Positions 3,874 through 22,877 of a stretch of 24,486 nucleotides of DNA are shown in pieces (positions within the stretch are counted from its first letter, which is position 1; each line of letters starts with the position of its first letter). Both the position numbers and the translations under genes were made by a program. This DNA comes from a virus (Duplodnaviria > Heunggongvirae > Uroviricota > Caudoviricetes). A model generated the notes under the pieces. It was not told the DNA's origin, searched no databases, and saw nothing but the letters and a program-made list of their open reading frames with translations. Location of the stretch: positions 1 to 24,486 of IMG/VR virus record IMGVR_UViG_2529292836_000011; one strand, 5' to 3'.

Positions 3874-6072
3874 ATGGCAGAAAAAAAGATGGCTGACTGG
3901 CATCGCAAGGTGCTGTGCAACTTTGATAATGCCTGGTCAGCAACGCAGGATATGCGTGAGCAGATTATTGAGGCTCAACGTTTCGTCCGGGTGTCCGGCG
4001 CACAGTGGGAAGGCAGCACAAACGCTGGTTACTCATTTGATGAAGGCAGGTTTGAGCATTACCCGCGCTTTGAACTGAATAAGATTTCCCGTGAATGTGA
4101 TCGCATCATTGGCGAGTATCGACAGAATCGCATCAGCGTTAAATTCAGGCCGAAGGACGATAAGGCATCGGAAGCGTTAGCCGAAAAGATGAACGGCAAA
4201 TTCCGCGCTGACTATCAGGAAACATCCGGTGGCGAAGCGTGTGATAACGCATTTGATGATGCTGTAACAGGCGGATTCGGTTGTTTCCGCATGTGTGCCG
4301 ATTACGAAGATGAAATGGACCCAAGTAACGAGCAGCGACGCATCAGCCTTCTTCCTGTTTACGACCCGGCGACATGCGTCTTCTTCGATCAGGACAGCAA
4401 GCAATATGACCGCTCTGATGCTATGTGGGCTATGGAAATGTTCTCCATGACGCCCAAAGCGTTCGAGGCTGAATACCCTGATTCCACCGCGGCAAGCCTT
4501 TCTCGTGATGACACTGGCACTCAATATGACTGGTCAACGCCCGATGCCATCTATGTTGGACGCTACTACGAAGTTCGCATAGAGAAGGTGAAGCTCACGG
4601 CGTGGCGCAACCCTGTTAGCGGAGAAACGGCAATCTATGATGAAGAGCAAATCAAAGATATTGTCGACGAGCTAACCGATGGCGCATTCGAACTGATTGG
4701 CGAGCGGACAGTGAAGAAACGCCGAGTTTATTGCGGTCTTCTTTCTGGCGCTGAATGGCTGGAAGAACCGAAGCGTATTCCTGGCGAACATATTCCTCTC
4801 ATCCCGGTATATGGGCGTCGCTCATTTGTTGATAATCAGGAGCGAATCGAAGGCCACGCTGCAAAAGCGATGGATGCACAGCGTCTTGAGAACCTGATGG
4901 TTTCCATGATTGCAGATAACGCTACTCAGGCTGGCGGTGATGGCATTCCTATCGTGGATGTTGATTTCATTCCCGGTCCATTAATGAATCACTGGGCAGA
5001 GAGGAATAAGAAAAGACCTGCAGTTCTTCCCATGACCAGCAAGAAGGACAAAAACGGAACGGTCATTTCAGAGGCTCAGGTTGCTGGCTGGACACCTCCG
5101 ACACAAATGCCTCCTGCTCTTGCCGGGCTATTGCAGTACACCGGAACGGCTATTCAGCAAATTACAGGTGCGTCGCAGCTTGAGAACATGCCGAGCAACG
5201 TCGCCACCGATACCGTTGATAGCATTTTTAACCGGATGGACACGCAGTCCTATATCTACATGGACAACATGGCTAAATCCATGCGTCGCGCTGGCGTTGT
5301 GTGGCTTTCTATGGCGCGTGAGGTCTATGGAAGTGATACGCCGATGCGTATCGTTAATGAGGACGGCAGCGATGACGTGGCGCTGATGACTGGTGAAGTG
5401 GTTGACCGTCAGACAGGGCAGGTTATCGCTCTTAACAACCTTTCGCAGGGTAACTATGAAGTGACTGTCGATGTTGGTCAGTCGTTCGCTACTCGCCGTG
5501 ATGCAACGGTTAAGTCGTTACTTTCCATGCTGGCACTTATCCCACCGGGAACGCCGAAGCATGACCTTGTATCGTCTCTTATTCTCGACAATATGGACGG
5601 CGAAGGGATGGAAGACCTGAAAGAATACAACCGCAATCAGTTGCTTCTGTCTGGAGTTATCAAGCCGAGAACACCAGAAGAACAGCAGATGGTTGAGCAG
5701 GCGAAACAACAACAGGCCAGTCAGCCGGATCCGGCTATGGTTGCAGCGCAAGGTCAGCTTCTGGCTGGTCAGGCTGAATTGCAGAAAGCGCAGAACGAAC
5801 AGGCAGCCATTCAGGTTAAAGCATTCCAGGCACAGACTGATGCTCAGGTTGCTGCGGCAAATGTTGTGAAAATCCTCGCATCTGCCGATAGTCAGCAGAA
5901 ATCTGATATCCGCGAGGCTCTGAAACTGCTCGGACAGTTCCAGCAACAGCAAGGAGACAATGCCCGTGCTGATGCAGAGCTTGTCCTGAAGAGTCAGGCG
6001 CAGGGCCATGCGCAGCGCATGGACATCAACAGCATCCTGCAAAAATCAACTCAGCAACAACCACAGCAGTAA
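3874..6072 (+). CDS. Portal protein (P22 gp1-like)
   Basis: 732 aa with blocks matching the recalled P22 gp1 sequence (RRRVY, GEHIP.PV.G, PEEQQ...QQ..DPAMV.AQG.LL.GQAEL.KAQN) and a Gln-rich C-terminal barrel region. Confidence 0.93.
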   Translation: MAEKKMADWHRKVLCNFDNAWSATQDMREQIIEAQRFVRVSGAQWEGSTNAGYSFDEGRFEHYPRFELNKISRECDRIIGEYRQNRISVKFRPKDDKASEALAEKMNGKFRADYQETSGGEACDNAFDDAVTGGFGCFRMCADYEDEMDPSNEQRRISLLPVYDPATCVFFDQDSKQYDRSDAMWAMEMFSMTPKAFEAEYPDSTAASLSRDDTGTQYDWSTPDAIYVGRYYEVRIEKVKLTAWRNPVSGETAIYDEEQIKDIVDELTDGAFELIGERTVKKRRVYCGLLSGAEWLEEPKRIPGEHIPLIPVYGRRSFVDNQERIEGHAAKAMDAQRLENLMVSMIADNATQAGGDGIPIVDVDFIPGPLMNHWAERNKKRPAVLPMTSKKDKNGTVISEAQVAGWTPPTQMPPALAGLLQYTGTAIQQITGASQLENMPSNVATDTVDSIFNRMDTQSYIYMDNMAKSMRRAGVVWLSMAREVYGSDTPMRIVNEDGSDDVALMTGEVVDRQTGQVIALNNLSQGNYEVTVDVGQSFATRRDATVKSLLSMLALIPPGTPKHDLVSSLILDNMDGEGMEDLKEYNRNQLLLSGVIKPRTPEEQQMVEQAKQQQASQPDPAMVAAQGQLLAGQAELQKAQNEQAAIQVKAFQAQTDAQVAAANVVKILASADSQQKSDIREALKLLGQFQQQQGDNARADAELVLKSQAQGHAQRMDINSILQKSTQQQPQQ

Positions 6073-6162
6073 TTAACCCATAACGTGCAATGGCTGTCTT
6101 TATGAGGCCTGGCACCCTATTGCCTTCCGATGGGCTGAACATCGAGTAAACAGGGGTAACAA

Positions 6163-7056
6163 ATGGACCAGATGGCAGAAAACACACCAGAAGTTGAAAT
6201 CGAAACCGATACATCAGAGCAGATTCCTGATGATGTCGAACTGGCTGAAGAAGTCGAAACAGAAGATGGCAGTGAGTCCTCCGGCAATGATGCAGAGGAA
6301 GCTACTGAAACTGATGACGACGAATCAGAACAGGAATTCTACTTTGGTGACGAAAAGCTGGATTCGCCAACCAGCGAAGATGGCGCAGAGCATGGACTGG
6401 TAAAACACCTGCGCAAGACGATTAAAGAGAAAGACCGCGAGCTGAAAGAGCTGATGCGTCAGTCTCAGAAACCCGTCGAGCAGCAGCCGGTAATCACTCA
6501 ACCACCGCGAATGCCAAAACTGGACGATGAGGACATCGGTTTCGATGAAGAAATCTACCAGCAACGCATGGCTAAGTGGGCAGAGGATAACGGCAAGTAC
6601 CAGCAACAGGAGATGGCTCGCAAGCAGAAGGAGCAGGAGCTTCAGGCTGCCTATCAAGAGCGATTATCCAAATATCAGCAACGTGTTAAGGCTCTCAAGG
6701 TTCCTGGCTATCAGGAAGCAGAACAGGCCGTACTCGAGGAAATCCCCATCGAGACACAAAGCGCGATCCTGTTTGAGTCAGAGAAGCCGGAAATCGTTGT
6801 TCTGGCGCTTGGTCGCAACGCTGAACTGCGCAAGCAACTGGCAGAAGCTACCAACCCCGTAGCAATTGGTCGTCTGCTGGAACGTATCGAATCGAAGGCC
6901 AGAATCATGCCAAAAGCAAAAACCACGGCAGCCACAACCCCGACAGTTAAGGGGAGCAACGGCGCAGTAATCAATAACCTCGACAAACTGAAAGCCAAGG
7001 CGCTGGAAACTGGTGACTGGACGCCGTATTTCGCCGCTAAAAAGGCAAAAAAATAA
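6163..7056 (+). CDS. Scaffolding protein (P22 gp8-like)
   Basis: 297 aa with a highly acidic N-terminus and coiled-coil, Lys-rich C-terminus, located between portal and coat. Confidence 0.8.
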   Translation: MDQMAENTPEVEIETDTSEQIPDDVELAEEVETEDGSESSGNDAEEATETDDDESEQEFYFGDEKLDSPTSEDGAEHGLVKHLRKTIKEKDRELKELMRQSQKPVEQQPVITQPPRMPKLDDEDIGFDEEIYQQRMAKWAEDNGKYQQQEMARKQKEQELQAAYQERLSKYQQRVKALKVPGYQEAEQAVLEEIPIETQSAILFESEKPEIVVLALGRNAELRKQLAEATNPVAIGRLLERIESKARIMPKAKTTAATTPTVKGSNGAVINNLDKLKAKALETGDWTPYFAAKKAKK

Positions 7057-12295: not shown

Positions 12296-13747
12296 ATGGC
12301 TACGTGGCAACAGGGTATTAATTCTGGTGGTTTTCTGGCTGGCATTGGTGCGCAAAACGAGAATGCGCCAAAGGCAAGCGACATTAACGCAACGCTTGGT
12401 CTGATCCGCGAAAACAATGAACTGGCTCGATCAGGTGCAAATAACGTTGCTCTGACAGGTCTTCGTGGTCTGGCTGGAGTTGCTGATATTTATAAGCAGC
12501 AGCAAAAGCAGGAGCGTAAAGCGGCATTCCAGAAAGGTTATGCGGATGCTTATGCGTCCGGCGACAGGGAGCAGATGCGTAATCTTATTACAGCATTCCC
12601 CGAAGAGTTTGAGGAAGTCCGTAAAGGCATGGGGTATGTCGATGACGCCCAGCGGGATGATTTTGGCAATCTGGCGCTTAAGGCTCAGGTCGCTTCGTCG
12701 CTTGGTCCGGGTGCATTTGGCAGGTTCATGATGGATAACGAAAAGGAGATGCGTCGTTTAGGTATCCCTCCAGAAACTATTGCGGAAATGCAGGTTAATG
12801 ACCCGCAGGGCTTCCAGCACTTCGCAGGTAATCTGGCACTATTTTCTCTCGGTCATGAGAAGTATTTCGATATCAAAGATCAAATGGAAGGTCGGGATAT
12901 TGAGCGTGGCAAGTTGGCAGAGACGATTCGCAGCAATAAAGCTGGGGAAGGTTTAAAGGCGCAAAGCATTGCTGTTAGCCGTGAAAACTCCCTGCGCACT
13001 GCTGGAGGTGCTGTTCCTGCATCTGTTAAAGAATATCAATATTTCAACAGCCTGTCTCCAGAGCAACAAAAGACATATCTTCGTGTTCGAGGTCGTCCTG
13101 ATGCTGGCGGGGAGAATGTTGTGCAACTGGCAGATGGCAGAACGGTAACGGTTGGTAGGAAGCTTCACGGCGCTGGTGCTAATGCGTTCTACGAAGGAAT
13201 AGACAACGAGGGCAATATGATTCGCGTCCCCGCCAGTTCTATTGCTGCTCCGGCTACATCGGCAGCTAATGCACAGAATTACGAAATGAAGAAAGATCTT
13301 GATGCAATTTCTGGCGCATCAATTGACGATCTTGGCTTCATGACAGGTATTACAGGTTCTTCAGGTTCTTTTGCTCTTGGTGCAGATATTCGTAGCAGGG
13401 CATCTGGTGTTGAGGAGAGGAGGCTATACAACGCTGCACAGCGAATCATGGGCAAAATGCAAAATCAGGGGATTGCAGCAGCCCGAGATATGGGGGCATC
13501 TGGCATCAACACCGAAGCAGAGGCCAATAGGTATTTTCAGGGTATGCCAAAGCCTGATTTCTCAAGTCCTGAAGCGCTGCAACAATCAATGCGCGACATT
13601 CAGCAATATACCGACAATTACAACCAGCAATATAACGTTAATGTTGGTAATGGCGGGAAGAAATCATCAAGGCAACAGCCAGCTACTCAGCAATCAGCAG
13701 GAGGTAGCTACACGTCAAAATCAGGCATTCAATTTACGGTGGAATGA
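12296..13747 (+). CDS. Ejection protein, gp20-like
   Basis: 483 aa in the gp20 position (P22 gp20 is about 471 aa). Confidence 0.7.
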
Positions 13748-15759
13748 TGAAAGTAACTGCAAATGGTAAGACATTTACCTTTCCTGATGGTACGAGCACG
13801 GAAGATATTGGGTCCGCCATTGATGAGTATTTTGCTGGTCAGTCAGCGCCAACACAACAAGGTGTTCAGCAATCGCCAGCAGACAACTCACTTGCATCAG
13901 GATATGCACAGCTTGCCACTCAGCAGAAGGAAGGACTAGATCGCTCTGCTGAGCAAGGGGCTGTTTTAGGTGCTGCAATGCGCGATGCCGTTACCGGTGA
14001 AAGCCGAATGACACCAGAAATGGAGAGACTGCAAAATGTTGGGGCTGCCCCTGAGTTGAACTCACTAAGCATGGATGCCCTGAAGGCTGGATGGTCTCAA
14101 CTTTTCGGCTCCGACGCGTCTCAGGAAAAGATTCTTCAGAGTATGGGGGCGAAATTAAGGCAGGATGAGAAGGGTAACACTATCGTTTCCCTGCCATCCG
14201 GTGATTATGCCCTGAACAAGCCAGGTTTATCACCGCAAGACCTGACTTCGTTTCTTGCTAATGCGTTAGCGTTCACACCAGCGGGCAGGGCTGGAACGGT
14301 GCTTGGTGCCATAGGGAAATCAGCTGCTACAGATTTAGCACTACAGGGTGGCACCAGCCTTGCTGGCGGAGAAGATATTGATCCTGCACAAACGGTAATT
14401 TCTGCTGGCATTGGTGGTGTTGGCAAGGGGCTGGAAAATACAGTTAGTGCGGTTTCCAGGGCTGTTCGCGGTGAGATGTCACCGGAAGCAAAGGCTGCTG
14501 TCGATTTTGCGTCGGAAAGAAACCTGCCGTTAATGACCAGTGACACGCTGAAAGATAAAACCTTTATGCAGAGTCAGGCTCAGACATTAGGCGAAAGAGT
14601 TCCTTTTTTTGGAACCGGTAAGAATCGGCTGAATCAACAACAAGCACGAGAAAATTTAGTCAGAACATTTAGCGATGGTCTGGGTGGCATTTCTGATAAA
14701 CAGCTTTATGAATCTGCGACTAAAGGGCAACAAAAATTCATTGAGGCAGCAGGAAAGCGATATAACCGCATAATTGACGCTATGGGGGATACCCCTGTCG
14801 ATCTCTCAAACACGGTAAAAGCTATCGACAATCAGATTGCCGTGTTAAGCCGCCCGGGCAAATCTCAGGATAGAGCCGCGGTAAAAGTCTTGCAGCAATT
14901 TAAAGACGATATCACCAGCGGACCCAATGACCTGCGTCTGGCGAGAGAAAACAGAACTGACCTTCGAAAGCGGTTCATGAATTCAAACGAGACTGTTGAT
15001 AAAGACACGCTCCAGAAAGCCAGCGATATTGTCTACAAGGCATATACAGCGGATATGAAAAAAGCAGTATCCCAAAAACTAGGCTCAGAAGAAGCTGCCA
15101 ATATGTCTAGGGTTGATCGCTCATGGGCTAGATTCAATGACATGATGGGAAGAACGCGCGTTCAAAAGGCAATAGCCAGCGGCAAGGCTACACCTGAGGA
15201 TGTAACAAAACTCGTTTTTAGCCAAAACCCATCAGAACGTTCTCAGCTTTACAGGCTTCTGGATGACAATGGTAGGCAAAACGCACGAGCAGCCATAGTT
15301 CAGAATGCTGTAGATAAGGCGACTGATCCGTCTGGAAATATTAGTGTTGAAAAGTTTATTAATGCGTTACACCGGAACAGGAAGCAATCAGCAACTTTCT
15401 TTAAAGGCGTACATGGAAAGGAACTGGACGGCGTTATTAAATACCTCAACGATACAAGACACGCGGCAAAAGCGAACGTTCAAAACTTAAATGGTCAGCA
15501 GCTTTATGGATTGTTAGTTGGTGGTGGCATCATAAACGCAGCAGTATTAGCGGGGATGCTAAAAACGGCTGCGTTTGTTGTTCCTGCTGCTGGTGTCGTA
15601 GGAGGAGCTGCGAAGGCATACGAAAGCCCTGTTATACGAAATGCCTTGTTACGTCTGGCAAATACGCCAAAAGGTAGCACAGCATATGACAGAGCGATCA
15701 GTACGGTCACACAATCGCTCACCAGAGTCGCACAGGCATCACAAAAAGAAGCTCAATAA
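13744..15759 (+). CDS. Ejection protein, gp16-like
   Basis: 671 aa in the gp16 position, ATGA overlap with the upstream gene, hydrophobic Gly-rich segment near the C-terminus. Confidence 0.7.
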
Positions 15760-15776: not shown

Positions 15777-16127
15777 CTAATTTTTATTCTTTGATCTCGT
15801 CCACAGGTAAAGAAGAGCAATGGCAAGACAGGAAACAGAGAATAGATAACCTACCTCATATGGTGCGCCAAAAAAATTAGCTATTGATACGGGCAAAAAA
15901 GCCGAAGCGATCAGAATTGAAAGGCAAAAAATAAGCCCAGTAACATAGTTTATTAAACTCTTAAATGAGAAACGTTTTGCTTGATTTACGGTCTCAGCGA
16001 GTGATCGCTTAACGATGGATAAAAGAAAATAGATGGCGACAGTAGCTAATGCCCCTTTCCACCAGTCTGGATATAGTTTTGCGACAATCAGCCCAAGGAA
16101 AACCATGATGACAGACTGAGCATTCAC
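15777..16127 (-). CDS. Small multi-pass inner-membrane protein (possible superinfection-exclusion moron)
   Basis: About 117 aa from a GTG preceded by AAGGAGG (5-nt spacer), with three to four hydrophobic helices. AT-rich. The ORF-track start at 16202 adds a non-hydrophobic extension. Convergent with the gp16-like gene. Confidence 0.55.
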   Translation of the reverse strand: MNAQSVIMVFLGLIVAKLYPDWWKGALATVAIYFLLSIVKRSLAETVNQAKRFSFKSLINYVTGLIFCLSILIASAFLPVSIANFFGAPYEVGYLFSVSCLAIALLYLWTRSKNKN

Positions 16128-16192
16128 ACCAACCTCCTTAGTTTTGCTCAGGATACCAGATGATAATGTGTAGTTGGAGTAGCGCGGTTGTA

Positions 16193-16282
16193 ATGCAAGC
16201 ATTTTGTTTTGGTTTTATGCTTGCTTGTATGTGTGTACAGTGTATATAATGCAAGCATACATCACAATAAAGGTGCTTGCAT
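16193..16282 (+). promoter_or_regulatory. Divergent promoter region with two copies of a palindromic operator (half-site ATGCAAGCAT, 14-bp spacer)
   Basis: ATGCAAGCAT at 16193-16202 pairs with inverted ATGCTTGC at 16217-16224. ATGCAAGCAT at 16249-16258 pairs with GTGCTTGCAT at 16273-16282. A TATAAT at 16245-16250 overlaps the second operator. Confidence 0.5.
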
Positions 16283-16283
16283 T

Positions 16284-17276
16284 ATGACTGAAAAGAAAAG
16301 TGGCGAAGGGAAAGCTAAGGGCGGTATCGCTCGCGCAAAGTCGCTGACTAAAGAGCAGCGTTCTGAAATAGCAAAGAAAGCAGCGGCTGCAAGATGGAAG
16401 GATAAACCATTAATTGCTACGCATAAGGGATCGTTCCAGCATGAATTCGGGATTGATGTTGAGTGCTATGTGTTAAATGATGATAACAAAACTGCCGTTA
16501 TTAGCCAGAGAGGCATGGGAGAAGCGATTGGTCTTGGCGAAGGTGGCAGCAGGTTGCCAAAGTTTATTCAGGGGAAAACTATTTCTCAGTATATCGGGCA
16601 TGAATTAAGGGCAAAACTTGAAAATCCTCTTATTTTTCAATACAAACAGGCGGGCACGAACACTCCAGCTAATCCTGTAATACATGGCTACGATGTAACA
16701 ATATTAATTGATTTATGTCGAGCAATCTCTAATGCTAAAGCTGAAGGTAAGTTGCTTTCCAGTCAGGAAGGGATTGCTAAGCAAGCCAGAATCATTATTG
16801 ATGCATCAGCCAAGGCGGGCATTCAGGGGCTTGTTTATGCTTTGGCAGGGTATGACAGAACAAAAGAAGAGGTAATTCAAGCATATAAGCGATATGTTGC
16901 TGAAGAGGCTCGTGAGTATGAAAGAGAGTTCACCCCTGAACTTTATGAGCATTGGTATCGTCTGTATGGTATAGACAAACCAGTTAGAGGGCGACCATGG
17001 GCGTTTAAATATCTTACGATAGATCACATTTATTACCCATTAGCCAGAAGTGAAGGAAAGGTATTTAATTTAGCAAAAACGTCAAAAGAAGAAAAAGGCA
17101 GCAAAAACGATAAAATACACCAGTTTTTATCAGAGGTTGGAGTTAAGGCTCTTAGAACCCAAATAGGTAAGGTTACTGGTATTGCAATGGTTTCTGATAC
17201 TCGAGAAGAGTATGAGAAATACATAGATGAAAAGGTTATTGGACAAAGAACCATAGACTTAAAAGATAAAGAATAA
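16284..17276 (+). CDS. Hypothetical 331-aa protein with a basic N-terminal tail (possibly P63C-domain / anti-repressor-like family)
   Basis: ATG at 16284 preceded by AAAGGTG. N-terminal KGGIARAKSLTKEQRSEIAKKAAAARW motif. Followed by a strong terminator. The ORF-track start at 16209 would run through the promoter and operators. Family assignment is tentative. Confidence 0.7.
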   Translation: MTEKKSGEGKAKGGIARAKSLTKEQRSEIAKKAAAARWKDKPLIATHKGSFQHEFGIDVECYVLNDDNKTAVISQRGMGEAIGLGEGGSRLPKFIQGKTISQYIGHELRAKLENPLIFQYKQAGTNTPANPVIHGYDVTILIDLCRAISNAKAEGKLLSSQEGIAKQARIIIDASAKAGIQGLVYALAGYDRTKEEVIQAYKRYVAEEAREYEREFTPELYEHWYRLYGIDKPVRGRPWAFKYLTIDHIYYPLARSEGKVFNLAKTSKEEKGSKNDKIHQFLSEVGVKALRTQIGKVTGIAMVSDTREEYEKYIDEKVIGQRTIDLKDKE

Positions 17277-17282
17277 GAAAAT

Positions 17283-17304
17283 CCCACCGTCAGGTGGGTT
17301 TTTT
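17283..17304 (+). terminator. Rho-independent terminator (CCCACC-GTCA-GGTGGG then TTTTTT)
   Basis: Perfect 6-bp GC-rich stem with a T6 run, directly after the 16284-17276 gene; an A-run upstream makes it potentially bidirectional. Confidence 0.7.
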
Positions 17305-17317
17305 ATAAGGAGTAATC

Positions 17318-17503
17318 ATGACCATAGAAGAACGTCTGAACAACATTGAGTTGAATCAAACCCTGCTTGACCAGCGACTTTCAGATCTTGAGCTTAAAGA
17401 TCTAGATGTGCAAATATCAGAAGCAGAAGCCAAGCTCTCCAGCTTAAACCACCGCAGGAAGCAAATCCGCGACAGAATTACTCGTGGACGCGGAGGCTGT
17501 TAA
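17318..17503 (+). CDS. Hypothetical small coiled-coil protein
   Basis: 61 aa, with AGGAG 7 nt upstream of the ATG. Heptad-like Leu/Glu pattern and a basic C-terminus (RRKQIRDRITRGRGGC). Confidence 0.5.
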   Translation: MTIEERLNNIELNQTLLDQRLSDLELKDLDVQISEAEAKLSSLNHRRKQIRDRITRGRGGC

Positions 17504-17580
17504 GGTGTGATGGTAATCCTTGCTCACTAAATTTAAGGATGCGAATCTTTCCGGCCATAGGAGTAATCATGATTTACCCA

Positions 17581-18117
17581 TCAAACAACCCACCAGTTTG
17601 CCTGATTGGATACCAGCCTTGCAGTTTTTATGGAATTAATTATGCCATGCTCAAGAGCCTTGTTAGCATCCAAAATGGTCGAGTCTGCTATCAGGGATGC
17701 CCACCTAATATGGGTTCCGATGTCGATATTGAACGTCTCAACGAAGCGATCAAGATCGTTATCGAGGCATTTCCCGTACTCTCTCAATCTGGCATGGTCG
17801 GCGGCTGGGGAGGCAAAGCACCATAATAGAGGATGTAACAGGAATCTTGATAATGGGTTTGCGAAACGTTCTGAGCCAGCCAGGAAAACGATATTAGCTA
17901 TGGATTCAACATTGCTTATGTTGTGAGTTCTAACGGTAACAGGGAGTGACTTAAGAAAGTTATACGCAGTAAAGCCAGCGGCAGTTTCCCCTCCCTGACT
18001 TGATATATGGATATTTAATTCAGTTGCGCCTTGAGATAATGCGGTGAGACAGTGGTTCTGAAGTTGCCCAACAGTGGCAGTGTTAACGGGGCATAAGAAA
18101 TGAATTGTGTGCAGCAT
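17581..18117 (-). CDS. ClpP-like (peptidase S14-fold) protein, N-terminally truncated; translationally coupled to mnt
   Basis: Ungapped match to the recalled ClpP core from the GG motif to the active-site Ser (ISSQGG for INSPGG; VESIAN for AASMGA). His-box RFANPLSRFLLHP for RFCLPNSRVMIHQP. The Asp position reads GIINSI for GLVDSI. Its ATG overlaps the mnt stop (TAATG). Confidence 0.5.
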   Translation of the reverse strand: MLHTIHFLCPVNTATVGQLQNHCLTALSQGATELNIHISSQGGETAAGFTAYNFLKSLPVTVRTHNISNVESIANIVFLAGSERFANPLSRFLLHPLLWCFASPAADHARLREYGKCLDNDLDRFVETFNIDIGTHIRWASLIADSTILDANKALEHGIINSIKTARLVSNQANWWVV

Positions 18118-18365
18118 TATTTTTCATCCTTACCATACATGGTCTTTAGCGTCTCAAGCAGCGCCTCTTTGAATTTGTCAGCTTCTTGCTGAGCAAATGA
18201 CTCAACTGACTTTGGCGACCTATCTTCATCAATCGCGGCTTGCAAAATCATGACGATCTCGGAGTTAACAGAGCGACCATTTTTTGATGCTCTGACAGCA
18301 AGAGCCTCGCGTAAAGATTCAGGGATTCTTACCGTAGTTGGAGAAATTGACACACCCTTTGCCAT
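18117..18365 (-). CDS. mnt: Mnt-like ribbon-helix-helix repressor
   Basis: 82 aa from the ATG at 18365 (AAGGTG upstream). RASKNGRSVNSEIVMILQAAI matches the Arc/Mnt signature (recalled P22 Mnt: RAEANGRSMNSELLQIVQDAL); C-terminus TLKTMYGK versus TLKDLYKK. Confidence 0.8.
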   Translation of the reverse strand: MAKGVSISPTTVRIPESLREALAVRASKNGRSVNSEIVMILQAAIDEDRSPKSVESFAQQEADKFKEALLETLKTMYGKDEK

Positions 18366-18479
18366 ATCACACCTTTGGTATTCAATTTGATAGCAAAGTG
18401 TATGCAAAAAAATTTTGACTAGATATACTCACTTTGATATCTTTTGTATTCGAAAAGAGTTGTTTGCGTGGAGGGTAAC
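18366..18479 (+). promoter_or_regulatory. Divergent mnt/arc promoter-operator region (immI-like)
   Basis: AT-rich 114-bp gap between divergent RHH repressor genes, containing TTGACT and TATACT/TATCTT-like hexamers. By analogy to P22 Pmnt/Pant; the operators were not mapped. Confidence 0.45.
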
Positions 18480-18632
18480 ATGGAGAAAGAAATAAGTAAG
18501 ATTTTGGTAAGGATGCCGCAGTCGTTAAAGGATGCTATCGGTAGCAGGGCAAAGGAAGAGTGCAGGTCGTTTAACTCAGAGGTTATCAAGCGCCTGATAG
18601 ACAGCCTGAAGAGAGAGGGGGTAACGGTGTGA
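18480..18632 (+). CDS. arc: Arc-like ribbon-helix-helix repressor
   Basis: 50 aa from the ATG at 18480 (GGAGGG upstream). VRMPQSLKDAIGSRAKEECRSFNSEVIKRLIDSLKREG parallels recalled P22 Arc (...NGRSVNSEIYQRVMESFKKEG). Confidence 0.8.
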   Translation: MEKEISKILVRMPQSLKDAIGSRAKEECRSFNSEVIKRLIDSLKREGVTV

Positions 18633-18864
18633 TTCGCTTGGATGCAGTAGTCAAAGAGATTGCGATTACCATTTTAAGACCAAATTTTGTTCATGGCGAA
18701 TCATTTGGCACGAACGAAAAATTGAGAAGAGAAAGAGTATTCAGTGGCAAGCGCACGTTTTCAGAAGTGATGCTTGATGCGGCAAAGAAATCAAAACAGT
18801 GAAGCCCCAACTGCGGGAACGGTCAGGGCTTCGGTTGTCAGTAAATCCGTGGAGAAAAACCAAC

Positions 18865-19767
18865 ATGAATAGTATAGCAATTTTAGAAGCAGTGAACACC
18901 TCTTACGTACCATTCAACGGTCAGCAAATTATCACCGCCATTGCTGCCGGAGTTGCATATGTTGCGATGAAGCCAATCGTTGAAAACCTTGGAATGAGCT
19001 GGTCAACGCAGCAAACAAAACTCATGAAGCAGATTAGCAAATTCAACTGTGTTCATATGAACATGGTTGCCGCTGATGGGAAGCTTCGTAAGCTACTCTG
19101 CCTTCCTTTGAAGAAGTTAAATGGATGGCTGTTCAGCATCAACCCTGAGAAAGTTCGTGCTGACATACGTGATAAACTGATTCAGTACCAGGAGGAATGC
19201 TTTAGCGTGCTGCATGACTACTGGACAAAGGGAGAGGCAGCAAATGCACGGAAGAAAACATCTGTTGATGACAGGACTCCGCTTCGTGATGCTGTAAATA
19301 TGCTAGTCAGCAAAAAGCATCTAATGTACCCAGAAGCTTATGCAATGATTCATCAGCGTTTCAATGTGGAAAGTATTGAAGAGCTTGATGCATCTCAGAT
19401 ACCACAAGCAGTAGAGTACATCCACAGGGTAGTGCTTGAAGGTGAGTTCATCGGCAAACAAGAGAAGAAAACCAACGAGCTTTCTGCAAAAGAAGCAAAC
19501 AGCCTTGTATGGCTATGGGATTATGCCAACCGCTCACAGGCATTATTCCGCGAACTGTATCCGGCGCTAAAACAAATTCAATCGAACTATTCCGGCAGAT
19601 GTCATGACTGCGGTTATGAGTTCTCCCGTATTATCGATATAGCGAGAGACGTTTTAATCAATCACACACTAGATGTTGATATTAATGAGCCAGACGGACC
19701 AACGAATCTTTCCGCATGGATGAGACTTAAGAATAAAGAATTACCTCCTTCAGTACATAACTACTGA
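18865..19767 (+). CDS. ant: Antirepressor Ant
   Basis: About 300 aa directly downstream of arc, as in P22 immI, and followed by a terminator. Start taken at the ATG at 18865 ([17 protein letters not shown]...); the upstream GTG extension runs through a hairpin. Confidence 0.75.
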
Positions 19768-19867: not shown

Positions 19868-22138
19868 ATGACAGACATTACAGCCAATGTGATCGTATCG
19901 ATGCCTTCGCAACTATTCACTATGGCTCGTTCTTTTAAAGCCGTAGCCAATGGCAAAATTTATATCGGTAAAATTGACACTGACCCGGTAAATCCTGAAA
20001 ACCGGATTCAGGTTTATGTGGAGAATGAAGACGGTTCTCACGTTCCTGTATCTCAACCAATCATCATTAACGCTGCCGGATATCCGGTATATAACGGACA
20101 GATTGCCAAATTCGTTACCGTGCAAGGCCATTCTATGGCTGTTTATGATGCATATGGTGCGCAGCAGTTCTATTTTCCGAATGTGCTGAAGTATGACCCT
20201 GATCAACTGCGATCTGAACTGGAGGGTCCTGGTGGAGCTGGATTTGTCGGAGGATTAGCAAAGCCTGTTACTTGGAGTGGTTTTGCCGGAGGTGCTGATC
20301 CTACTGGTGTGCTTGATTCAACTGCGGCGTTTCTGGCTGCCAATGCCACGAAAAGTAAAATTTATATCCCAGCGGGCACATACAAACTAACCCAAGATGT
20401 AGTGTCTGATCCCCTTACATCATGGGAAATGGAGATGGGGGTTTCATTTATAGGTGGATACTGGCTGCGTCAGGTACCTTGGTTGTCAGGTGTAGGTAAT
20501 AATATATTTTACTATCTCGAAAGACACTGTAGAAATACATTTATTGCGCCACCTGACGGCATAGGTGTTTACGGGTCGGCACACACTGCCCTCGGTGGTG
20601 CAGGCGGTGCTGCATTAGGGGTGGCAGGTACTGCGATAAACGATGATACATCTGGCTCACGATCAAGTGTGTGGGCCTTGTACGGTTCAGCTATACGCAA
20701 TGCAGGAACAATAGGAGCAAGTCACGGTCTTGAACTTGATATAGCAAACAGGGGGAATGAGCGTGAAATGTATCCTAATTCAATGTTCCCCAACGGTCAG
20801 ACTGACGCATTATGGTTAGGCTCAGGTGGTGAATTAACCCAAGCTGGAGAAGTGTTGAATGCTGCATCGGCAGCAATTGGAATAATAGCTAACGACAAAA
20901 CTGCTGGGAAAACAGCGCGCTTTCTGAAGGGCATCGTATTTGGCAGTAATAGCCTTAAAGGAACCGATGGAGAATCAACAGGTCAAGGTGTGGCAATTGC
21001 TTTTGGTAATAGGCACTCAATGACCTGGTACAACAATTTAAATCAGAAAACTTCTGAAATACTCTCTGTTTTGGAGGATGCAACCAGATCAACCAGAATG
21101 TTATTTAGTGATAATGGCGTAGTATTTACACGATTATCGTCTGGGTTGCCTATATTTGCCATAGAGTCTGGGCCTACAGTTCCTGCCAATTATCTATCCA
21201 TGCGCTCGCATACAGAATCTAATGCTCCTGCTGTTGGCGTTGCTGGAAGCGATAAAGATATTCATTTGAGGCTATCTCCAAAAGGGGATGGCATTGTAAT
21301 AGTAGACTCATCTATTGCACCATTATCACAGAACAGTAACAGCACGGTCGGAACTGCTGGTCGTGTGTGGTCTGGTGGATTCACTCAAACAGCCTTTACC
21401 GTTACTTCAGATGAGCGAGCTAAAACTGCACCTCTTGAAATCACTGATACAATACTTGACGCATGGTCAGAGGTTGACTTCGTTCAATTTCAGTATCTTG
21501 ACAGAACAGAAGAAAAAGGGGAAGACGGAGCTCGTTGGCATTTTGGCGTAATAGCTCAACGTGCAAAGGAGGCGTTTGAACGTCATGGGCTTGATGTGCA
21601 CCGATTTGGATTCTTTTGCTTTGACGAGTGGGATGATCAATATACTAAGGTTCAGACAAACGAAGGTGTAATGGTTACTAAAACTCGCATAACAACAGTT
21701 CCAGTGCAGGTTACTAAAACTCGAATTGTAAGCAAACCAGTGATGGTTACTGAGAGTCGTCAGGTATTAAAGGATGAGGTACTGGAAGACGGAACACGGA
21801 TTAAACGAGTAGTGAATGAAGAGTATCAGACTCCAAAAATGGAAATGATACCTGTTCTTAATGAAGATGGTTCACCTTTTGCGCAAAATCCATTCGTAAG
21901 CGTTCCTGTAGTTGAAGATGTAGAAGAGGAGTACATCGAGACAGAGTTTCAAGAAGTAGAAGAAGAGTATGAAGAAGAGGCAGAACCAGAATATGAAGAT
22001 ATTCTGGTCACTCCGGCAGGCTCACGTTATGGTATCCGTTATGAAGAGGCGTTAGTCCTTGAAGCTGCATTACAACGCAGGAATTACCAAAAAGCATTAT
22101 CTAGAATTGAAATGATAGAAATGAGAGAAAATATATAA
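19868..22138 (+). CDS. Tailspike: P22-type N-terminal head-binding domain, divergent receptor-binding domain, C-terminal S74-type intramolecular chaperone domain
   Basis: N-terminal ~115 aa ([11 protein letters not shown]...[21 protein letters not shown]...[12 protein letters not shown]...NVLKYDPDQ) near-match the recalled P22 gp9 N-terminus. The centre is AT-richer and Gly/Ser/Ala-rich. The C-terminus carries TSDERAKT and [13 protein letters not shown] motifs typical of autocleaving chaperone domains. Confidence 0.9.
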
Positions 22139-22232: not shown

Positions 22233-22877
22233 TTATTTTTCTGAAGCGCTTCTGTTTTCTAATATTTTTAATGGGATTTCAATATTAGACGTCCCGAAAG
22301 ATGAACCAATCAAATTCCACAGCTCATTAGGTTTTAACTTCCACCATTCAGTCTTTAATAATCTATCAATTATTTCTGGAGGATGTCTGTATCTAATAAC
22401 CTTAGCTGGTACTCCTCCTACAATTGCATATGGCGGTACATCTTTAGTAACAACAGAGCCTGCGGCAATGATGGCACCAGTTCCAATATTAACCCCTGCT
22501 AAAATTGTACATCTAGAACCAATCCATACATCATGCCCTATGATAACATCAAGATCTTTCCCAAATATGTCAGAGCTCGCCTGCCATATATGTCCTGTAG
22601 GGTTAAATCCATTTCTTAACTCAGGATCTACAACCATATTTAGCGGGTAACTTGTTAATGTATTTGTCGCATGACGACCTTGTCTTCCAACAAAAATCAC
22701 AACGTCGAAAGCTATAGAGCAATATTCACCAATTGAAAGAATTCGCTTGTCGTCATGCATCCCAATCTCAATTCTTGGTTTTCCGTATGTGTATTCACCA
22801 CACTGAATAGTCAAGAAATCTCTGCTGTAATTAGATCTTAAATAAGAAGCAGTTGATGCTGGGCCAGGAAAATTCAT
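22233..22877 (-). CDS. Hexapeptide-repeat acetyltransferase of the XAT class (Vat/CatB-like)
   Basis: 214 aa; C-terminal IGHDVWIGSRCTILAGVNIGTGAIIAAGSVVTKDVPPYAIVGGVPAKVIRYRHPPEIIDRLLKTEWWKL closely parallels recalled CatB/Vat sequences (IGNDVWIG...GDGA...VTKDV.PYAI.GG.PAK.IK.RF...I..L....WWNW). Markedly AT-rich compared with the structural genes. Confidence 0.85.
   Translation of the reverse strand: MNFPGPASTASYLRSNYSRDFLTIQCGEYTYGKPRIEIGMHDDKRILSIGEYCSIAFDVVIFVGRQGRHATNTLTSYPLNMVVDPELRNGFNPTGHIWQASSDIFGKDLDVIIGHDVWIGSRCTILAGVNIGTGAIIAAGSVVTKDVPPYAIVGGVPAKVIRYRHPPEIIDRLLKTEWWKLKPNELWNLIGSSFGTSNIEIPLKILENRSASEK

Follow-up and report, generated by a model that had tools for sequence, protein, structure and literature searches.

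A number of bacteria are furnished with two ClpP peptidases, and in Listeria (ClpP1/ClpP2), M. tuberculosis (ClpP1P2) and P. aeruginosa (ClpP2) the second of them displays a defective or atypical catalytic triad or N-terminus; it is weak alone, works only in mixed tetradecamers and becomes functional once stacked on the canonical, unfoldase-binding ring (see also the discussion in PMC12900304). The shortest ClpP characterised so far, PpClpP1 of Pseudomonas plecoglossicida, is N-terminally truncated and assembles into a homotetradecamer with an axial pore of 42.7 Å, its peptidase efficiency being 13-fold below that of the canonical paralogue (PMC12900304, PLoS Pathog 2026). Its “triad” reads Ser-His-Pro: substitution of either Ser or His by Ala abolishes activity, and the third residue is dispensable. 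Alone, this enzyme neither binds ClpX nor degrades casein or GFP-ssrA, and in combination with canonical ClpP it forms a stable heterotetradecamer with elevated peptidase activity; a deletion mutant shows defects in growth and motility (PMC12900304). Here, we describe a gene of the same family carried by a tailed virus (Caudoviricetes) and found in IMG/VR record IMGVR_UViG_2529292836_000011, positions 1 to 24,486, this whole stretch of 24,486 nucleotides being called the window below. The gene overlaps the end of mnt, the maintenance repressor gene of the immI immunity region, and we tentatively propose that its product would be expressed in the lysogen as a second ClpP ring, which may co-assemble with host ClpP and remodel the Clp protease of the host. 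The two genes are placed as follows.

17581..18117, minus strand: gene of an N-terminally truncated ClpP-family protease, 178 aa, stop codon included, assigned from the open reading frame (ORF), Pfam, the match to Protein Data Bank (PDB) entry 9UXT, the AlphaFold2 model and codon-position divergence.
18117..18365, minus strand: mnt, coding for an 82-aa Mnt-type ribbon-helix-helix (RHH) maintenance repressor (Pfam Arc, 9.6e-11), divergent from arc-sar-ant as in P22.

An earlier inspection of the letters of this DNA, referred to as the sequence-only reading, had aligned the 178-aa product with the ClpP core, and profile search bears this out: Pfam CLP_protease (PF00574, S14 fold) is matched with E 2.2e-11 and 44.4 bits against a cut-off of 20.2, residues 24-165 of the protein being aligned with profile positions 37-180 of 182. 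The NCBIfam equivalogs of canonical ClpP (TIGR00493 / PRK00277) give 19-40 bits and do not reach their cut-offs of 228-361. About 70 close relatives of 178-190 aa are distributed in Enterobacterales and Chromobacterium, and comparison with a 79%-identical orthologue from Pectobacterium revealed 34, 16 and 82 differences at codon positions 1, 2 and 3, respectively. The clpP-like frame is under purifying selection, and this distribution of differences implies that the plus-strand ORFs 17539-17826 and 17606-17926 are its antisense shadows. Codon-position divergence together with conservation of the protein across genera rules out these opposite-strand frames as true genes, an alternative which the sequence-only reading had itself named.

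By far the best match in the PDB is 9UXT, the “ClpP1” of P. plecoglossicida (E 1.8e-35, full length). The AlphaFold2 model, computed with 36 relatives as input, has pLDDT 93.1 and pTM 0.89, and Foldseek places it at TM 0.92 to 9UXT and at ~0.8 to canonical ClpPs, solved ClpPs as a whole spanning 0.78-0.92; the predicted fold is that of ClpP, head plus handle, in agreement with what had been expected from the sequence. Three codons mark the columns of the catalytic triad.

17902..17904, minus strand: codon of catalytic Ser72, aligned with Ser97 of E. coli ClpP, invariant.
17833..17835, minus strand: codon of catalytic His95, aligned with His122 of E. coli ClpP, invariant.
17680..17682, minus strand: codon of Ser146, occupying the column of the canonical triad Asp (E. 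coli Asp171) in both MAFFT and HMMER alignments.

Ser72, His95 and the SSxGG oxyanion motif (S39, S40, G42, G43) are invariant in 36 relatives, and among 28 family members compared Ser and His are retained in all and Asp at the third position is present in none. Thus the Ser and His boxes recognised earlier hold, whereas the Asn that had been read at the third position does not: the Asp171 column is filled with Ser146 here, with S, A or T in the phage clade and with A, S, P, G or E across the family, never with Asp, the residue in 9UXT being Pro. Asp145, which a one-residue shift of the alignment would bring forward as the triad Asp, was ruled out, its column being variable. Since the protein starts near residue 25 of mature E. 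coli ClpP, it lacks ~24 N-terminal residues and with them the axial loops and the gate, as the sequence-only reading had it. In E. coli ClpP the pocket accepting the IGF loops of the unfoldase, which we take from the ADEP and ClpX-ClpP structures to consist of Y60, Y62, F82, I90, M92, F112, L114 and L189, has as counterparts mapped by sequence N35, H37, S57, H65, I67, F85, N87 and K164, suggesting that the ClpX/ClpA docking surface is largely polar, with at least five of the eight positions polar or charged (N35, H37, S57, H65, N87 and K164 among them). Judged by these residues, the product is a Ser-His protease predicted to be unable to gate its pore or to recruit an unfoldase alone. Residues 174-178 (NWWVV) belong to a C-terminal N-W-W-V motif that hardly varies within the phage clade; the prediction for it is a terminal beta-strand, and it could serve in subunit packing or fill the former docking pocket.

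The family itself is already known, since NCBI annotates it as a ClpP subunit and one study combining structure with biochemistry appeared in 2026. An exhaustive profile search collected 229 cluster representatives at E up to 1e-30, and in a neighbour-joining tree, calculated without bootstrap support and with E. coli ClpP as the sole canonical outgroup, the window protein, 9UXT and ~180-aa relatives from Massilia, Telluria, Azotobacter and others cluster together, separated by a long branch from E. coli ClpP. A length of ~180 aa, N-terminal truncation, retention of Ser and His and loss of Asp at the third position are common to PpClpP1 and the window protein, although this position is Pro in the former and Ser146 in the latter. 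They differ also in that oligomeric state, activity and hetero-assembly were determined for PpClpP1 and the window protein is known from sequence and model, as well as in their genomic setting, chromosomal with Pseudomonas orthologues in the first case and prophage cargo coupled to mnt in the second. PpClpP1 itself was considered as prophage cargo and this was ruled out, its close relatives being chromosomal beside KGG and DUF6555 genes; genes of this type are chromosomal in the P. putida group as well as in the P. fluorescens group, as is one member from Massilia. In five Pseudomonas chromosomal loci (L102-L106, ~6001-6552) KGG-repeat stress-protein genes and a DUF6555 gene are its constant neighbours, which hints at a role in a stress regulon of which the 9UXT paper makes no mention. 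The secondary ClpPs of Listeria, M. tuberculosis and P. aeruginosa stand further away: they are chromosomal, ~200 aa long, mostly keep the N-terminal region, are not known to be phage-borne in any case, and reach a Foldseek TM of only ~0.8 to the window model at 19-24% identity.

The position of the gene with respect to mnt is defined by the following elements.

18115..18131, minus strand: coupling signal read from the sequence, consisting of the AAGGA Shine-Dalgarno (SD) motif 18131-18127 inside mnt and the TAATG stop/start overlap 18119-18115.
17559..18160, minus strand: mosaic cassette moving as a unit and composed of the mnt 3′ end, the clpP-like gene and 22 nt of 3′ flank, delimited by blastn block boundaries.
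17283..17298, both strands: bidirectional intrinsic terminator, a GC-rich hairpin with T runs on either strand.

The mnt frame runs from ATG at 18365 down to 18117, and its product shares 36% identity with P22 Mnt along the entire protein, including the C-terminal coiled coil (E 8e-14). The stop TAA (18119-18117) and the ATG of the clpP-like gene (18117-18115) have one base in common, and AAGGA is located 9 nt upstream, supporting the translational coupling that had been suggested from TAATG. The mnt gene precedes the protease gene in 35 P22-like loci and in Escherichia phage phiv205-1, and the 1-nt overlap is kept in 35 of these 36, the exception (L053, 3495-3779) having a 1-nt frameshift at the end of mnt which extends Mnt into the protease gene. 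The coupled Mnts fall into five classes of the N-terminal, DNA-binding part, mutually 26-46% identical, one class carrying the N-terminal half of P22 Mnt; across all five the protease gene is at least 97% identical, and the overlap and the SD motif are preserved. Comparison by blastn shows the cassette to end sharply at 17559, 22 nt past the stop codon. Where the Mnt allele is a different one, the second edge lies at 18157-18209, within mnt and 40-92 nt from its 3′ end. In some loci the shortest leader is thus 40 nt, too short to accommodate a promoter of its own, which implies expression through mnt from the mnt promoter Pmnt, and we regard it as a sound inference from sequence that the gene would be expressed in the lysogen from this promoter, as had been supposed before. 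The mnt-clpP transcript probably terminates at the 17283-17298 hairpin. In the majority of related loci 17559 follows immediately on 17321, which sets the terminator ~40 nt from the end of the cassette. The sequence-only reading was also right in that the gene is not a canonical one for P22, where ORF59 and the exclusion gene sieA lie downstream of mnt, epsilon34 having the terminator alone, and this difference in content between P22, epsilon34 and the window identifies the slot behind mnt as a site of variable cargo.

Carriers of the gene are prophages and temperate phages of Enterobacterales and Chromobacterium and one prophage of P. putida, the enterobacterial clade being confined to prophages and temperate phages, and four genomic contexts are distinguished. 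In P22-like phages of E. coli and Pectobacterium the gene invariably stands behind mnt; in lambdoid prophages (Klebsiella, E. coli and others) it occurs singly and on the opposite strand, with the Rz/LysC spanins to one side and the small terminase gene to the other; in lambdoid prophages of Proteus it adjoins the N antiterminator; and elsewhere it adjoins tape-measure, tail-fibre-assembly, invertase or integrase genes. Outside P22-like phages these positions are moron sites, where the gene usually runs antisense to lytic operons. The P. putida relative, 55% identical, is situated at the tail end of its prophage. Most of the genes flanking 43 stand-alone IMG/VR loci are encoded on the opposite strand, and the stand-alone relatives possess a conserved ~170-nt leader and their own terminator, although a strict consensus promoter scan upstream of a stand-alone copy called none. 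No constant partner gene was found beside these relatives, their flanks being ordinary phage genes and unrelated small ORFs. Among complete E. coli genomes the mnt-coupled form is present in 78 of 5426 (~1.4%) and the Rz-adjacent form in 15, and six isolated E. coli phages have the gene. In phage PhiR12_1 (L016, PV340549, 2525-4537), a lambda-like siphovirus, tail genes L and K are separated by an insertion of the entire ant-arc-mnt-clpP block, so that the immI module with the protease travels as a unit between phage types. Whole-prophage phenotypes described for phiv205-1 (biofilm, adhesion) are not assignable to the clpP-like gene.

E. coli and its relatives are organisms with one ClpP. The reading which we prefer, and consider nearly as apt to be right as wrong, takes the encoded protein as a catalytically competent, gate-less ClpP paralogue that turns such a one-ClpP host into a two-ClpP host. 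Transcription would start at Pmnt, and ribosomes finishing mnt would re-initiate at the overlapping AUG; the protease would thereby be made together with Mnt and be dispensable for lytic growth. By analogy with PpClpP1, the product may form heptameric rings with a wide open pore and behave alone as a weak peptidase unable to recruit an unfoldase. Following the same analogy, such a ring would stack on that of canonical host ClpP, giving a mixed tetradecamer fed by host ClpX/ClpA via the host ring, with altered and probably higher proteolytic output and hence changed turnover of Clp substrates. The pay-off might consist in fitness of the lysogen, an option considered because the Pseudomonas mutant has defects in growth and motility, in control of induction, or in exclusion of phages that have Clp substrates among their proteins. 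Lambda RexB, described as modulating ClpP-dependent proteolysis (Schoulaker-Schwarz 1991; Engelberg-Kulka 1998; both as cited in PMC11077077), sets a precedent: this prophage gene is expressed in the lysogen and changes Clp-dependent degradation of the host. RexB differs in being a membrane protein reported to inhibit degradation and no ClpP homologue. A wider formulation, in which a single-gene module spread by temperate phages of Enterobacterales adds a second gate-less ring whose reprogrammed or unleashed Clp proteolysis would serve as a new means of superinfection exclusion or defence, or of induction control, wired to immI in P22-like phages, seems to us doubtful, a role in defence being possible.

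Several observations weigh against a mixed ClpP assembly. Hetero-assembly with E. coli ClpP is postulated purely by analogy, the window protein is only ~38% identical to PpClpP1, its handle region shows insertions and deletions relative to E. coli ClpP, and the chromosomal Pseudomonas clade of PpClpP1 may have co-evolved with its own ClpP. Even for PpClpP1 the gain of the heterotetradecamer in ClpX-dependent degradation was only “slightly higher” (PMC12900304). The gene is also damaged in a few prophages (L059, L060 and L072, the copy of L060 lying at 4855-5001), an IS transposase being inserted inside the gene in one case and the 5′ part being truncated in two. Finally, strict linkage to immI in E. 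coli phages could indicate a narrower, immI-specific job.

Other explanations differ from the mixed-assembly reading primarily in whether host ClpP is needed and in what the linkage to mnt means. An exclusion or defence effector acting alone in the lysogen appears unlikely: as an open-pore homotetradecamer independent of host ClpP, it would degrade unfolded or disordered polypeptides of a superinfecting phage, ejected or nascent, or else be unleashed on infection and abort it. The gene does occupy known slots of prophage exclusion cargo, standing behind mnt where P22 has ORF59 and sieA, at the junction of Rz and the small terminase gene and beside N in lambdoid prophages; sieA of P22 (PMC10883804) and lambda bor, at the Rz-cos junction, use the same slots and are likewise lysogen-transcribed cargo opposite to the late operon, although SieA is an inner-membrane blocker of injection, Bor is an outer-membrane lipoprotein, and the soluble protease fold of the window gene is unrelated to both. 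A putative lysogenic promoter driving the gene, the invariant Ser-His pair, the wide pore of the homologue (42.7 Å, PMC12900304) and movement between unrelated temperate phages in the manner of defence cargo point in the same direction. Set against this, PADLOC-DB v2 contains no model matched by the protein, even with E as high as 1, the neighbours encoded on its strand elsewhere gave no PADLOC match either, there is no constant partner gene, no paper on a phage-borne member was found, and the family has stable chromosomal members near stress genes in Pseudomonas and Massilia. The homotetradecamer of the homologue is a poor peptidase without activity on casein or GFP-ssrA, and its biochemistry favours a ClpP paralogue acting through canonical ClpP of the host over an autonomous effector (PMC12900304). 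Linkage to mnt in every P22-like locus, whatever the Mnt class, would be accounted for by a dedicated accessory of immI, in which the protease, acting alone or together with host Clp ATPases, clears Ant (or Arc) that remains from infection or leaks from Pant and adds to the control by Mnt, Arc and sar a post-translational layer stabilising lysogeny. Transfer of the whole ant-arc-mnt-clpP block into the tail operon of lambda-like PhiR12 phages and the presence of canonical sar RNA and ant next to the gene agree with it; we nevertheless deem it clearly improbable, because relatives 51-58% identical stand alone in prophages of lambdoid or myovirus-like type and far from any immI genes, P22 and epsilon34 run immI without the protease, and a gate-less ClpP without unfoldase should not degrade folded Ant of 300 aa.

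Type II toxin-antitoxin pairs typically consist, as here, of a small RHH gene and a second gene overlapping its end, and the RHH protein scores weakly with the FitA-like RHH model of Pfam as well (2.1e-8); it would then be the antitoxin and the ClpP-like protein the toxin. To this we attach a very slight probability. By its full-length similarity to P22 Mnt, its coiled coil and its divergence from arc-sar-ant the RHH protein qualifies as a true Mnt, one and the same ClpP is combined with five unrelated Mnt classes, relatives in 43 loci have no RHH partner at all, so that pairing is not obligate, and the solved homologue was overexpressed in E. coli and purified (PMC12900304). Hardly credible is the head-maturation (prohead) protease of the GenBank label given to QGF19911 of phage phiv205-1, although the top PHROG is phrog_94 “head maturation protease” (7.4e-21) and NCBIfam Clp_rel_HeadMat (NF045542) responds with E 5.2e-13. 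Prohead proteases of these two families do resemble the window protein, being phage-encoded enzymes with ClpP fold, Ser-His catalysis and no N-terminal gate; they belong, however, to the head module, occur frequently as fusions with scaffold or capsid and are late gene products, whereas the NCBIfam score of 49.3 bits remains below the family cut-off of 120 and the window gene lies in immI, outside the head module, on the opposite strand to late genes and behind a lysogenic repressor. Its stand-alone relatives at moron sites are likewise antisense to structural genes, and capsids of the P22 type mature without a protease.

The mnt-coupled gene gives a biological setting to a family described so far only as a drug target in Pseudomonas, corrects the misleading annotation as head maturation protease and adds a soluble protease to the known cargo of the mnt/sieA slot in P22-like phages. 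The only lead in the searchable literature was the 9UXT paper; no account came to light there of members carried by phages, of the constant association of the gene with mnt irrespective of immunity class or of its repeated appearance at moron sites. If the mixed-assembly reading is true, lysogeny itself alters regulated proteolysis, and RpoS, SOS fragments, antitoxins and phage replication proteins could be affected.

As a whole, the window represents a P22-like (Lederbergvirus) prophage or phage of E. coli, the nearest isolated phage being phiv205-1 with 98% over the region. Terminase, portal, scaffold and coat genes are followed by ejection-protein genes, immI, tailspike, acetyltransferase and integrase, and the arrangement of immI is canonical, with mnt on the minus strand and arc, a small ORF and ant on the plus strand.

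13744-15759: gene 16 homologue (ejection protein).
18366..19767, plus strand: the rest of immI including the Pant/Pmnt control region, assigned from Pfam, Rfam and a promoter-like motif.
18415-18443: promoter-like TTGACT-17-TATCTT in the Pant/Pmnt control region.
18480-18632, plus strand: arc (Pfam Arc, 5e-12).
18798-18864, minus strand: sar antisense RNA (Rfam sar, 82 bits).
18862-19767, plus strand: ant (P22_AR_N/C, 1e-44 / 5e-28).
19868-22138: tailspike gene.

Several small genes accompany this framework. The interval between arc and ant, which contains no gene in P22 or epsilon34, is occupied here by a 57-aa ORF (18629-18802, plus strand, phrog_17642) overlapping the stop codon of arc, with sar starting right behind it. 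On the other side of the clpP-like gene, a 61-aa ORF (17318-17503, plus strand, phrog_7586 of unknown function) is convergent with it and forms an insertion/deletion module, and the cargo between gene 16 and immI includes a P63C-domain protein (16284-17276, plus strand, phrog_2384 of unknown function) with a lysine/alanine-rich N-terminus, its gene being found in only some related phages. After gene 16 and on the opposite strand, exactly at the position of sieA in P22, there is a 141-aa ORF (15777-16202, minus strand) with several hydrophobic, membrane-like segments; it gave no match to PHROG, Pfam or PADLOC and no similarity to P22 SieA, and may be an unrecognised SieA analogue. Between tailspike and integrase, a hexapeptide-repeat acetyltransferase (22233-22877, minus strand) is probably an O-antigen acetylase gene of lysogenic conversion.

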